Assembly (NCBI GenBank): GCA_963815195.1 | Contig: CAWFGE010000019.1 | Coordinates: 1-64,000 of the forward strand | Source of the DNA: an uncultured Planctomycetaceae bacterium | Lineage (GTDB): Bacteria > Planctomycetota > Planctomycetia > Planctomycetales > Planctomycetaceae | Length of the DNA: 64,000 nucleotides | Direction: 5' to 3' | Shown here: in pieces, positions 7,780-54,792 of the stretch | Position numbering within the stretch: the stretch's first letter is position 1 | How the letters are laid out: every line of letters starts with the position of its first letter | Translations under genes and position numbers: made by a program | The notes under the pieces: model-generated | The model's database searches: none | The model's input: only the letters and a program-made list of their open reading frames with translations | Told to the model about the DNA's origin: nothing

Positions 7780-7852
<73 letters not shown>

Positions 7853-7959
7853 CCCGGTGAGTCGGTCTCACCTGTACAAATCGGTTGTTCCCACCTTTGA
7901 CAACCAAAACACAACGGGTTTTTCAACTTCGGACAATTCTCGGCAGGTTGTGATCACAC

Positions 7960-8041
7960 GGGGGAATACCCGAGCGGCCAAAGGGGCCAGACTGTAAATC
8001 TGGTGGCAAAGCCTTCGCAGGTTCGAATCCTGCTTCCCCCA
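7960..8041 (+). tRNA. tRNA-Tyr(GTA)
   Basis: Acceptor GGGGGAA/TTCCCCC, CTGTAAA anticodon loop, long variable arm. Confidence 0.95.
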
Positions 8042-8141
8042 CTCCTGGGAGATTTGCAATCCAAATCTCGAAATCTGAAACGAGTTACAGAGGCGTATTA
8101 TAAGGTTTCGGATTTCGAGCTTCGAATTTCGGATTTTCCCC

Positions 8142-8212
8142 GCGGGTGTAGCTCAATGGTAGAGCCCCAGCCTTCCAAGCTGGTTGTGAGGGTTCGATTC
8201 CCTTCACCCGCT
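8142..8212 (+). tRNA. tRNA-Gly(TCC)
   Basis: Acceptor GCGGGTG/CACCCGC, CTTCCAA anticodon loop. Confidence 0.95.
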
Positions 8213-8327
8213 CTGGACCCGTTTCGGTAGGTGGTGAACAATCAGGAATGAGGGGAGGCTGGCGGAAAGCCGCGGGTTCTTGCCTTTGAGGTGATGATGC
8301 GTCAGGAGGCCATCGGACACAGCAACT

Positions 8328-8400
8328 GCTGCTGTAGCTCAGTCGGTAGAGTGCGTCCTTGGTAAGGACGAGGTCATGGGTTCGAATCCCATCAGCAGCT
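8328..8400 (+). tRNA. tRNA-Thr(GGT)
   Basis: Acceptor GCTGCTG/CAGCAGC, TTGGTAA loop; canonical Thr-Tyr-Gly-Thr-tuf order. Confidence 0.95.
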
Positions 8401-8559
8401 TTTGAGGAGGGAGCGTGCTGTGCGAGCCGTCTGGCACCCTAGGGTTTGTGTGTTGCCGCCCTGGGCGGCGAATGGTCTGTTTTCCAATTTTCTATTCAAC
8501 AGCAACCAAGTTGGTTGGCAGCGATTCCTAGCTGAAAATCACAGGGAGAAAGCGAAACA

Positions 8560-9756
8560 ATGGCAAAGGACACATTTCAACGAACCAAGCCGCACGTGAA
8601 CGTCGGAACGATCGGTCACATCGACCACGGGAAAACGACTTTGACCGCGGCTTTGCTGGCTGTTCAGGGGGCCAAGGGTCTGGCCAAGTTCAAAAGCTAC
8701 GCCGACATCGCCAAGGGCGGGACCGTCCGCGACGAAACCAAAACCGTGACGATCGCCGTCAGCCACGTGGAGTACGAATCGGAAAGCCGGCACTACGCCC
8801 ACATCGACTGTCCGGGCCACGCCGACTATATCAAAAACATGATCACCGGGGCCGCCCAGATGGACGGGGCCATTCTGGTGGTGTCCGCCGCCGACGGCCC
8901 GATGCCCCAGACCCGCGAGCACATCCTCCTGGCCCGCCAGGTGAACGTGCCCCGGTTGGTGGTGTTCCTCAACAAGTGCGACCTGGTCGACGATGAAGAG
9001 TTGCTCGAACTCGTCGAAATGGAAGTCCGCGAACTTCTGAGCAAATACGACTTCCCCGGCGATGACATCCCCGTGATCCGCGGGAACGCCAAAGGGGCCT
9101 TGGACAATCCGTCCGACCCGACCTACAACGCCTGCATCGGCGAGTTGATCGATGCCCTCGACGCCTACATCCCCGAACCCGAACGGATTACCGACCGCCC
9201 GTTCTTGATGGCCGTCGAAGACGTGTTCTCCATCGAAGGCCGGGGCACCGTGGTGACGGGGCGGATCGAAATCGGCACCATCAAAGTCGGCGAAAAGGTG
9301 GAAATCATCGGTCTGAAAGATACGATGGAAACCACCTGCACCGGCGTGGAAATGTTCAACAAGACCCTCGACAAAGGCGAAGCGGGCGACAACGTGGGCA
9401 TCCTCCTGCGGGGCATCAAGAAGGAAGACGTGGAACGCGGCCAGGTGCTGGCGGCTCCCAAATCCATCAAACCACACGCCAAATTCCAAGGCGAAGTGTA
9501 CGTCTTGAGCAAGGAAGAAGGCGGCCGGCACACCCCGTTCTTCAGCGGCTACCGCCCGCAGTTCTACTTCCGCACGACCGACGTGACGGGCACCGCGAAC
9601 CTCTTGGGCGGAGCCGAGATGTGCATGCCCGGCGACAACGTCAACCTGGAAGTCGAGCTGGGCAAACCCATTGCCTTGACGGAAGGCAGCCGGTTCGCTA
9701 TTCGTGAAGGGGGACGGACGGTGGGGTCCGGCGTGGTCACGAAAATCGTCGAATAG
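8560..9756 (+). CDS. tuf: Elongation factor Tu
   Basis: [32 protein letters not shown]. Confidence 0.99.
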
Positions 9757-9921
9757 ACCCAAAAACGGTCAAACCGCAACCCTCGCCCGCATCCGGCCGC
9801 CGAGTCGTGTTCGGCGGCTGGACGCCACCACTACAAAAAATCGACTAAGAAACCCAAATCCCGCCCGAATAGCTCCGGGCGGGGTTTGTTGTCATTAAAG
9901 AAACGAGACGAAAAGGGTCCC

Positions 9922-10080
9922 ATGATGGCTCGTGAATACGTTTGGCTGGAATGCACGGAAACCGGCATGCGGAACTACCGCGTGAGCAAGGAAACCCGCG
10001 GCACCGAGCGGTTGGAGCTGAAAAAATACTGCCCCAAACTCCGCCGGCACACCGTGCATAAAGAATCCCGGAAGAAATAA
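9922..10080 (+). CDS. rpmG: 50S ribosomal protein L33
   Basis: REYVWLECTE...RLELKKYCPKLRRHTVHKE; position after tuf. Confidence 0.95.
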   Translation: MMAREYVWLECTETGMRNYRVSKETRGTERLELKKYCPKLRRHTVHKESRKK

Positions 10081-10156
10081 CGATCTGAGCCGCAGGGCGC
10101 TAGCCCGCGGGTCGGCGAACCCGCACGCGAGCGCACTCGTGCTCCTTTGGCAATAA

Positions 10157-10229
<73 letters not shown>

Positions 10230-38378: not shown

Positions 38379-39206
38379 ATGAGCGAGCAACCCTTAAGAA
38401 TCCTGGCGATCGGCGCCCACCCCGATGATTGCGATTTGACCGCCGGGGGCGCGGCGGCGCTTTGGAAACAGTCCGGGCACGAGGTGCGGTTTGTGAGCAT
38501 GACCAACGGCGAGTCGGGGCATCATCAAAAATCCGGGAAAGAACTCGCCGACATCCGCCGGCAGGAAGCCGCCAACGCGGGGAAGGTCCTCGGCATTCGT
38601 TATGACGTGCTCGACAACCCCGACGGGGCCCTCACGCCTTCGCTGGAAAACCGCAAACAACTGATCGGGCTGATCCGCGAATACGGTCCCGATCTCGTGC
38701 TGACGCATCGGCCCAACGATTATCATCCCGATCACCGCTACACGTCGCTTTTGGTCTGCGACGCGGCCTACATGGTCACGGTTCCGCCCGTGGTGCCGGA
38801 GGTTCCCGCGCTGCGAAAGAACCCGGTGATCTGCTACATGATGGATAATTTCCAAAGGCCTTATCCGTTTTCGCCGACGGTCGCAGTGGACATCGAGCCG
38901 GTGATCGAAAAGGTGGTCGACATGCTCGACTGCCACAAGTCGCAGTTCTACGAATGGCTGCCTTACAACAAATTCTTCCCGGAGCCTCCGCCGGACGATC
39001 CCGCCGCCCGCCGGGATTGGCTGGGCAAGCATTTTCGCAGCCGCATCGCGCATTACGCGGACAAATATCGGGAGCTGTTGATGTCGACCTACGGCCCCGA
39101 GCGCGGCCCGGCGGTGCGATACATCCAGGCCTTCGAGCCCTGCGAATACGGATCGCCCTTGACCGCGGACGAACGCTGGCGGCTGTTTCCCTTTTTGCCG
39201 CGATAA
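38379..39206 (+). CDS. PIG-L/LmbE-family deacetylase
   Basis: AIGAHPDD, MTNGESG, RRQEA, YHPDH, HKSQF. Confidence 0.92.
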   Translation: MSEQPLRILAIGAHPDDCDLTAGGAAALWKQSGHEVRFVSMTNGESGHHQKSGKELADIRRQEAANAGKVLGIRYDVLDNPDGALTPSLENRKQLIGLIREYGPDLVLTHRPNDYHPDHRYTSLLVCDAAYMVTVPPVVPEVPALRKNPVICYMMDNFQRPYPFSPTVAVDIEPVIEKVVDMLDCHKSQFYEWLPYNKFFPEPPPDDPAARRDWLGKHFRSRIAHYADKYRELLMSTYGPERGPAVRYIQAFEPCEYGSPLTADERWRLFPFLPR

Positions 39207-39270: not shown

Positions 39271-39298
39271 TTGCCTTTGGTCAACTTTCTGCGATTAT
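39271..39298 (+). promoter_or_regulatory. Putative sigma70 promoter
   Basis: TTGCCT-16 nt-GATTAT with extended TG. Confidence 0.45.
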
Positions 39299-39304
39299 TG
39301 GGAA

Positions 39305-39628
39305 GTCGTTTTCGTGCTGACGCGGCACGAAGGTTGTCAGCCTGTCAGGAGGCCGGATTGGTGAGCCGGTCGAAGCAGGGCGTTTTAACCAAGAAAGGAG
39401 GTGGTCAAGTGGAATACGACTGTAGTAGCCAACAACGAGGTGGTTCCGCCTAACCAGACAGCCGGCGGGTTGTCCTCGAGGCAACCACCGACTCGTAGGA
39501 TCGTCTCTTTTCTTGCGTCCGGTTTGATTCAGCAACCCTGAAATCAGCCGGTCAACAATCGATCCATCACGAGACACAAGCAGAACCCGATGCCCCTTTG
39601 ATGCGGGCATCGGGTTCTGTCTCGTTTT
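39305..39628 (+). ncRNA. Candidate structured RNA / leader with a 14-codon sORF (39409-39453)
   Basis: Between a putative promoter and a strong hairpin; several stem-loops; AGAAAGGAGGTG upstream of GTG; no long credible ORF. Confidence 0.45.
39581..39628 (+). terminator. Strong hairpin / probable terminator
   Basis: cagaacccgatgccc-ctttgatgc-gggcatcgggttctg, then tctcgtttt. Confidence 0.7.
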
Positions 39629-39656
39629 AGAGACCCCGTTTCGTAGCGGCGCGTCC

Positions 39657-40041
39657 AGCCTCCGGCCTTTGAATGTGAGCGGAAGGCGCTAGCCTCCGGC
39701 CTTTGAATGTGAGCGGAAGGCGCTAGCCTCCGGCCTTTGAATGTGAGCGGAAGGCGGCTAGCCTCCGGCCTTTGAATGTGAGCGGAAGGCGCTAGCCTCC
39801 GGCCTTTGAATGTGAGCGGAAGGCGCTAGCCTCCGGCCTTTGAATGTGAGCGGAAGGCGCTAGCCTCCGGCCTTTGAATGTGAGCGGAAGGCGCTAGCCT
39901 CCGCCCTGAGTCTTTGAATGTGAGCGGAAGGCGTCAGCCTCCGGCCTTTGAATGTGAGCGGAAGGCGCTAGCCTCCGGCCTGAGTCGATGAAGGGAAATC
40001 CCCACAAAACTCCAGGCCCGCGGCTAGCACCTTGCCGCTCA
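39657..40041 (+). repeat. Tandem array of nine 34-bp REP-derived units closed by one inverted REP arm
   Basis: Unit gcctccggcctttgaatgtgagcggaaggcgcta, core at about 39675, 39709, 39743, 39778, 39812, 39846, 39880, 39920, 39954; inverted arm aggcccgcggctagcaccttgccgctca at about 40014-40041. Confidence 0.95.
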
Positions 40042-40114: not shown

Positions 40115-40669
40115 ATGGACCCCAAACGGCAAAAACACATCAGCAAGTTTTTGAGCCTCGTCTTGCGGCATCAGCCGGAATGGATCGGCATTCAACTCGA
40201 TGCCCAGGGTTGGACGCCGGTGGACGCGTTAATCACCAAAGCCCAGCGCCACGGAACGCTGTTCTCCGAGGCGGAACTCCGGCAGGTGGCGGCGGATTCC
40301 GACAAACAGCGATTCGCCTTCAGCGACGACGGCACACAGATTCGGGCCAACCAGGGTCATTCAGTGACGGTGGACTTGGCCCTCGAACCGGCCGTTCCGC
40401 CGGAGGTGCTGTATCACGGCACCGTGGGAAAGTTCTTGGACAGCATTCGCCGGCAAGGTTTAAGGAAAGGGCAGCGGCATTACGTGCATCTTTCGCCCGA
40501 CGAGGCCACCGCGACCAAAGTCGGCTCCCGCCGTGGCCGCCCGGTGATTCTGCAAATCGCCAGCGGCCAAATGCACGCCGACGGCCTCGTGTTTTATCTC
40601 TCCGCGAACGGCGTCTGGCTCACCGACCATGTGCCGCCCTCGTACATGACTTTTCCCTCACAGGACTGA
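40115..40669 (+). CDS. kptA: RNA 2'-phosphotransferase (Tpt1/KptA)
   Basis: SKFLSLVLRH, DKQRF, IRANQGHS, LYHGT, RHYVHLS, NGVWLT. Confidence 0.96.
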   Translation: MDPKRQKHISKFLSLVLRHQPEWIGIQLDAQGWTPVDALITKAQRHGTLFSEAELRQVAADSDKQRFAFSDDGTQIRANQGHSVTVDLALEPAVPPEVLYHGTVGKFLDSIRRQGLRKGQRHYVHLSPDEATATKVGSRRGRPVILQIASGQMHADGLVFYLSANGVWLTDHVPPSYMTFPSQD

Positions 40670-54620: not shown

Positions 54621-54717
54621 TGACGGTGCTTGCCAAAATTCTTGCCACCAAGTGCGCTTGCCAGTAATGGCAAATGAAAAAGCCTCGCAAGTCATTAACC
54701 TGCAAGGCTTTAAGTAG

Positions 54718-54792
54718 TGGACGATACTGGACTCGAACCAGTGACCTCCACGATGTCAACGTGGCGCTCTAACCAAACTGAGCTAATCGTCC
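54718..54792 (-). tRNA. tRNA-Val(GAC)
   Basis: GGACGAT/ATCGTCC acceptor, CCACG-TTGACAT-CGTGG anticodon arm, GGTTCGAGTCC. Confidence 0.95.

Follow-up and report, generated by a model that had tools for sequence, protein, structure and literature searches.

The window, a 64,000-nucleotide stretch of DNA from an uncultured Planctomycetaceae bacterium, contains a real, conserved and uncatalogued planctomycete RNA gene, which is present in a single copy. We lean towards regarding its product as a stand-alone RNA of the rre type, which is named after the rre small mRNAs of alphaproteobacteria and in which the complex of RNA and ribosome, rather than the encoded peptide, would be the working part, by a mechanism that we infer. 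The element is flanked by a PIG-L deacetylase gene (38379-39206) and a KptA/Tpt1 gene (40115-40669), and its features are collected in Table 1. All features that an earlier note on this DNA had listed (the promoter-like TTGCCT and TGcGATTAT, the hairpin at 39311-39331, the SD, the ORF, the second GAGG and the stems) lie where it had placed them.

Table 1. Coordinates of the element within the window.
Feature	Position	Strand	Remarks
Sigma-70-type promoter	-35 TTGCCT 39271-39276; extended -10 TGcGATTAT 39290-39298	+	16-nt spacer
Predicted transcript, ~320 nt	39305-39628	+	ends placed from promoter and terminator
P1 hairpin	39310-39332	+	loop GACGC 39319-39323; predicted loop-loop partners C39321-G39322-C39323
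P2, variable-length stem with internal loop	39341-39380	+	spacer arm between P1 and SD1; covariation
SD1, extended complement of the 16S 3' tail	39392-39406	+	complementarity, duplex energy
Micro-ORF, GTG start, 14 codons, TAA	39409-39453	+	ORF kept in relatives
SD2, second GAGGTGGT	39437-39444	+	GAGG 11 nt before last sense codon, 14 nt before stop
3' domain, state X, long hairpin	39439-39489	+	39439-39451 with 39479-39489; upper stem 39457-39463 with 39468-39474
3' domain, state Y, alternative hairpin ggttgtc/ggcaacc	39468-39486	+	masks the strand that otherwise covers SD2
Internal anti-SD strand	39499-39515	+	predicted 17-bp helix over SD1, in the window's genus only
P5	39492-39573	+	39492-39502 with 39561-39573; encloses lineage-specific insert hairpin 39519-39551
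Intrinsic terminator	39583-39628	+	stem 39583-39617 and T-rich tail; terminator-like site kept in relatives

The promoter agrees with the consensus at 8/12 positions and, for this reason, was not called by a stricter promoter scan. Among the relatives, the pattern TTG..N16-18..nAnnnT occurs within the 50 nt upstream of P1 in 114/127 loci (10.4 in shuffles), and a terminator-like site is present in 123/138 (7 in one shuffle). The fold of 39305-39630 has a z-score of -5.37, and none of 100 shuffled sequences was equally stable. P5 carries a CTCG..GATC motif at 72/139 loci; the insert hairpin that it encloses, already recorded in the earlier note, is present but varies even inside the genus. A GATCRYY motif, which copies the 16S tail, lies in or near P5, 3' of the 3' domain, at 84/139 loci (as GGATCACC in 37). 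The element is separated from the KptA/Tpt1 gene by a tandem array (39657-39981), which follows directly after the terminator and consists of 9.4 copies of a 34-bp unit with 93% identity. Its 14-16-nt cores are nearly restricted to the array and one of its 10-mers has 87 copies in the genome, which suggests that the array is a member of a REP-like family. The window also contains a tRNA-Thr/Tyr/Gly/Thr cluster, a tRNA-Trp and a tRNA-Val at 7780-10229 and 54717-54792.

Relatives were collected by BLAST, pattern and covariance-model searches, the route that had been proposed for Planctomycetota, and are conserved and possess covarying stems. A covariance model built from 25 sequences of the class found exactly one match in each of 88/101 Planctomycetia genomes that were at least 90% complete, absence here meaning not found by that model; the same class-trained model detected the element in 34/151 genomes of the phylum. 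BLAST matched 39/61 genomes at E <= 0.1, some of them by chance, and the element was present in 30/30 loci retrieved. A pattern scan of GTDB returned at least 119 matches, and among those listed 117 are titled Planctomycetota, so that the window falls in that phylum. Two planctomycete-type elements (L082 and L145) were located on short contigs of metagenome-assembled genomes labelled Novosphingobium and TA06; these contigs are probably misbinned and were omitted from the class counts. The L082 genome also carries an alphaproteobacterial-type site. A pattern confined to the SD matched 80/151 genomes of the phylum, many of these matches being ordinary long ORFs or chance, and adds further divergent members, from which 20 candidates were chosen by eye. 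A looser scan of metagenomes yielded 61 matches, comprising planctomycete-type loci and other micro-ORFs with an extended SD; as this pattern required GAGG and GRCGGG, the matches are no proof that these boxes are universal. Viral contigs gave two chance matches and otherwise none. No report of such an RNA in planctomycetes was found in the literature searched, which covered few subscription papers, and the searched text of PMC11109978 and PMC8632094 does not mention planctomycetes.

Rfam models found no match on the element, as was expected for a novel RNA, and none among its planctomycete relatives; three chance matches (E 5-6) fall outside the element. The earlier note was unable to assign the region to tmRNA, RNase P, SRP or 6S, and this holds: ARAGORN reported nothing at the element, which has no tRNA-like domain and no RF00023 match, and the genome encodes its tmRNA on contig C8, its 6S RNA on C10, its RNase P RNA on C20 and an SRP candidate below the cut-off on C5. 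The claim of novelty is sound with regard to Rfam; the combination of an extended SD, a GUG and a micro-ORF, however, has already been published as rre (PMC5711450), and the similarly arranged CC2171 is in Rfam.

Outside the genus, the genes on either side of the element are unrelated to one another; of 238 ORFs extracted, 45 on the downstream and 45 on the upstream side were scanned. Since a promoter and a terminator flank the loci and the neighbours are unrelated, the element is a stand-alone gene, in line with the stand-alone transcript proposed earlier, for which the contigs of RNA libraries also speak. With its upstream-type ORF, alternative hairpins and terminator, the locus resembles a cis-acting leader or attenuator of a downstream gene; however, the ORFs found downstream fall into many families without relation to one another, 40/75 of the longest ones listed (mechanical ORF picks) are located on the opposite strand, and the micro-ORF contains no run of one amino acid, so that this explanation is very improbable and already largely refuted. 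Part of the region was contained in 19 RNA-library runs; the evidence comes from four of them, which had been picked as known carriers. One contig from a near relative covers 39314-39505 with 3 differences in 192 nt and a depth of 95, and further contigs of relatives cover 39316-39574 (depth 59), 39365-39619 (depth 58) and 39365-39593 (depth 2.4). The contigs are confined to the element, and near relatives appear in four studies, with depths of 58-110 in three; the contigs give neither strand nor ends nor level, DNA may be present in the libraries, and the uncovered flanking gene says nothing of low expression. Thus, the element is apparently transcribed.

The sequence upstream of the micro-ORF had been described as 12 exact bases of 16S complement followed by further pairing, which proved correct for the genome's own 16S tail: SD1 forms 15 contiguous pairs (one G.U), followed by a mismatch and by further pairs that reach into the start codon. 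In the 8.87-Mb genome, the exact 12-mer occurs three times, twice antisense to rRNA and once at SD1. By duplex energy, SD1 ranks fifth and not first among non-rRNA sites, with four sites scoring slightly better. Some relatives carry a fully complementary form. The spacing from GGAGG to GTG is 12 nt in 133/134 loci; L036-L154, unlike L001-L030, were found with a pattern that already contained the GTG. In the window's genus SD1 is masked (unpaired probability 0.02-0.05). Full masking as a general switch was dropped, as SD1 is less than 0.2 unpaired in just 25/123 loci and the duplex energy is only slightly better than that of shuffled sequences (-18.0 versus -16.1).

A covarying long-range contact between two loops, which the earlier note missed together with the register of SD2, is predicted to enclose SD1 and the micro-ORF. 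P1 was found in 151/181 loci (25.6 in shuffles), although several divergent members have no detectable P1; its stem shows compensatory changes at 7/7 pairs and is 98% paired, and the outer helix of P2 is 84% paired with compensatory changes at 4/5 pairs. Insertions of 100-130 nt between P2 and SD1 are tolerated in L013, L026 and L028, and the size of the putative ring is therefore not fixed on its 5' side. The P1 loop follows the pattern N-ACG-Y, and a GRCG (NRCG) box is located about 8 nt after the stop codon. A tetraloop hairpin of at least 3 bp that presents NRCG is found in 30/30 of the BLAST-found loci (1.1 when shuffled), 18/26 model matches, 11/20 SD-only candidates and 0/8 alphaproteobacterial loci. 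The combinations of loop and box are ACGC:GGCG in 127 loci, ACGT:GACG in 7, ACGG:GACG in 6, ACGC:GACG in 5 and ACGT:GGCG in 2, which corresponds to C:G 127, U:A 7, U:G 2, C:A 5 and G:A 6 at the variable position. Forty later loci, mostly of families outside the alignment, served as a held-out set; in the 32 that could be scored, the pair is U-A in 25, C-G in 4, U.G in 1 and C.A in 2, one C.A being a mis-picked loop, and a fourth pair (C-G) is possible in 13. Both loop and box are switched in L011 and L026, which represent two genera of the window's own family, and only the box in L013; a C is kept opposite A in L013, L172, L171/L178, L183, L296-L298 and L364. The contact comprises 3 bp, two of which are invariant, and the independent covariation events amount to a handful because kin share states. 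The P1 loop and the NRCG box appear, from this sequence comparison, to pair and to close the RNA around the SD and the ORF.

The hairpin ggttgtc/ggcaacc noted earlier is present, but it is one of two alternative pairings. In state X, the stop codon is located at an internal loop and the GGCG tetraloop (39464-39467) exposes G39465-C39466-G39467 as partners of the P1 loop; the upper stem is 92.5% paired, and under crude constraints the energy favours this tetraloop hairpin in 135/139 loci. State Y is 95% paired with compensatory changes at 4/7 pairs, one of which is C-G in 90 loci, U-A in 13, U.G in 14 and C.A in 2. A single 3' fold was rejected, since energy favours X and yet covariation backs both. 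The alignments thus support a 3' domain with two alternative states, of which X would hide SD2 and expose the tetraloop, and Y would leave SD2 free. The two covarying folds would also suit a protein-binding or base-pairing regulatory RNA, a dual-function sensor: translation of the micro-ORF would change how this RNA folds or how long it lasts, and the two ACG-type loops would bind a protein or join RNAs into dimers instead of encircling the ribosome. The decay of rreB depends on its start codon according to the text of PMC5711450, the GACG hairpin persists in some members in which no P1 can be recognised, and GACG tetraloops make intermolecular RNA contacts in retroviruses, as stated in the part of PMC516450 consulted. 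However, loop and box covary inside one molecule and alignment A1 contains no conserved free seed outside SD1, and we regard such a sensor as unlikely.

The GAGG of SD1 lies 11 nt before the GTG, which is the distance of the SD2 GAGG from the last sense codon. As both registers are the same, a ribosome with the stop codon in its A site could re-pair with SD2 through the 16S tail. The distance from SD2 to the stop codon is 14 nt in 27/30 BLAST loci and 97/105 pattern loci and 13 or 16 nt in 17/20 divergent covariance-model matches; among the 20 SD-only candidates, SD2 is found at 12-16 nt in 12 and is missing in 8, and in 8 alphaproteobacterial loci the distance is scattered. Testing the conservation of SD2 is confounded, because the same bases pair in the 3' hairpin.

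An ORF of 12-16 codons is present in 133/134 unique loci, the remaining one reading through 96+ codons, and the stop codons are TAG in 47, TAA in 44 and TGA in 42. The stop follows 2-3 codons after a GG dipeptide in 135/135 loci (6.6 in shuffles), these being the loci with GG among 139 class-type loci from which ORFs of more than 30 aa had been filtered out. This strict conservation of frame and stop with all three stop codons, as well as a Cys at codon 5 in 103/135 Planctomycetia ORFs and the common occurrence of RGG there, would be expected if the element were an mRNA under tight repression that encodes a functional peptide of 10-16 aa and whose structure does no more than throttle translation. 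The text of PMC5711450 describes the RreB and RreR peptides as conserved within clades, but also as unstructured, and reports that overproduction was without effect. Furthermore, codons 2-4 and the residues after GG vary freely, the planctomycete peptide is hydrophilic and thus unlike type I toxins, and the conserved GAGG box, which invariably lies 12-17 nt ahead of the stop codon, falls into each of the three frames and is translated as RGG, RRW/RRL or EVV. Cys is encoded by TGT in 103/103 cases at codon 5 and by TGC in 30/35 at codon 4; this positional codon bias and the box in three frames place the constraint at the nucleotide level. A peptide mRNA of this kind therefore appears distinctly unlikely. 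The micropeptide that had been suggested is accordingly backed by a frame-conserved ORF, which is real, but judged from its sequence and the frame change of the box the peptide is probably secondary and not the main product. TACGAC was considered as a mimic of the complement of 16S h44 and dropped, as those codons vary. In five loci (L187, L190, L193, L211 and L212), a conserved RNA with an extended SD has an ORF without ATG, GTG or TTG and with ATA at the start position; its GAGG box lies 15 nt before TAG and is followed by GGCGG.

The role as a CsrA sponge, which had been proposed on the basis of several GGA motifs, could not be upheld. Nine matches to the CsrA family exceed the Pfam cut-off in this genome, an unusually large set spread over seven contigs; however, the element contains 5 GGA where 6.2 are expected, none is located in a hairpin loop of the predicted fold, and the sites fall in SD1 and variable stems, which makes a CsrA/RsmA sponge extremely improbable.

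In the preferred reading, that of an RNA-ribosome complex, SD1 would dock a 30S subunit by pairing with the 16S tail over about 15 bp. The P1 loop would pair with the NRCG box through 3 bp, or through at least 4 in some lineages, and the RNA would thereby form a ring that encloses SD and ORF. By analogy with tmRNA, this ring may encircle the bound small subunit. Weak initiation at the GUG would be followed by slow translation, which would unzip the 3' hairpin, and a ribosome at the stop codon would, given the length of ribosome footprints, melt state X and permit state Y. With the stop codon in the A site, SD2 could then re-pair with the 16S tail while the Y hairpin keeps SD2 free, and the ribosome would be held at termination until the RNA is reset or destroyed through release or cleavage. 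Most likely, the RNA serves to retain or meter free 30S subunits or terminating ribosomes, or to report translation capacity via fold and turnover. A bolder proposal, which we put forward tentatively and consider rather doubtful, is that of an ancient, near-universal housekeeping-type RNA of planctomycetes that acts beside tmRNA, is clamped round the neck of the 30S subunit through its loop-loop closure and parks or meters ribosomes by two SD anchors at start and stop; rre, CC2171 and rre-like RNAs of other phyla would then be reduced or convergent forms. To the rre-type RNAs, whose purpose has been a question since 2016, the form found in planctomycetes adds covarying structure and a fixed geometry that the short alphaproteobacterial form lacks, and it offers specific, mutable predictions, namely rescue of the loop-loop pairing, the SD2 register and a ribosome peak at the stop codon, as well as a target for cryo-EM. 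That almost nine in ten of a class's genomes carry one copy of an RNA outside Rfam suggests a layer of translation control that has gone unrecognised.

Among known RNAs, T-box riboswitches carry a UGGNACC bulge and precede an aminoacyl-tRNA-related gene; this identity was rejected, as the ACC is not conserved, the neighbours are unrelated and Rfam gives no match. tmRNA has a ring-like topology. The element resembles it as a structured RNA of the housekeeping type that contains a short ORF and would act on ribosomes, but this ORF is equipped with an SD and a start codon of its own. In prfB, an internal SD at the stop codon pairs with 16S rRNA while the stop is in the A site, and SD2, likewise an SD-like sequence near a stop, could pair in the same way; however, the spacing here is that of initiation, and a terminator follows instead of a conserved shifted frame. 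The Rfam model Ms_IGR-5 (RF02471), an sRNA of Actinobacteria, has no match at the locus and reaches at best 15.1 bits elsewhere in the genome (cut-off 45). The model of the Caulobacter sRNA CC2171 (RF01867) starts with the same extended SD and GUG, but its best score in the genome is 18.4 bits (cut-off 75), not at the locus, and it matches solely the alphaproteobacterial-type L207 and L307 among 35 sources; one locus of the metagenome scan matches it. CC2171 is expressed and its function is unknown, according to the part of bioRxiv 10.1101/2022.01.24.477521 consulted.

The closest counterparts are the rre small mRNAs, rreB of Bradyrhizobiaceae and rreR of Rhodobacterales (Hahn et al., PMC5711450), which were compared here through the text of that study; its figures and alignments lie outside this comparison and could bear on an SD2 in rreB. 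As described there, rre genes are reported from alphaproteobacteria only and their function is called elusive. rreB co-sediments with 30S subunits, its translation is weak, and its own start codon makes it less stable; 20-fold overproduction of rreB left growth unaffected, and simple sequestration of ribosomes is a role that the authors argue against. In five alphaproteobacterial loci (L196, L197, L223, L226 and L241), an rreR-like gene of 18 codons with an extended SD lies directly before an ORF. Judging by its N-terminus, this ORF may encode the ribosome-rescue factor ArfB/YaeJ, which would connect these genes with the idea of ribosome rescue raised in PMC5711450. The text and supplement text of PMC5711450 do not mention planctomycetes, kissing loops or pseudoknots, and no homology to rre was detected beyond the SD, the P1/NRCG module being absent in 8 alphaproteobacterial loci. 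Against the published text, the P1/NRCG closure, the SD2 register and the two-state 3' domain are three features not described for rre. The planctomycete RNA is also longer (~320 versus 165 nt), its SD1 begins ~90 instead of ~8 nt into the transcript, and it pairs over 15 bp with a G.U where rre has 16-17 perfect pairs, so that with 12 exact and 15 contiguous bases, one of them G.U, it falls narrowly short of the complement of at least 16 nt to the 16S 3' end that defines rre. Its complement does extend up to the GTG of a small ORF, and it is a stand-alone gene with promoter and terminator. Both RNAs are stand-alone transcripts with a 16S 3'-end complement that reaches the GUG of a 14-codon ORF, an SD partly masked by structure and a variable genomic context. 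On these sequence features, the planctomycete RNA is an elaborate relative of the rre kind and would work as rre does.
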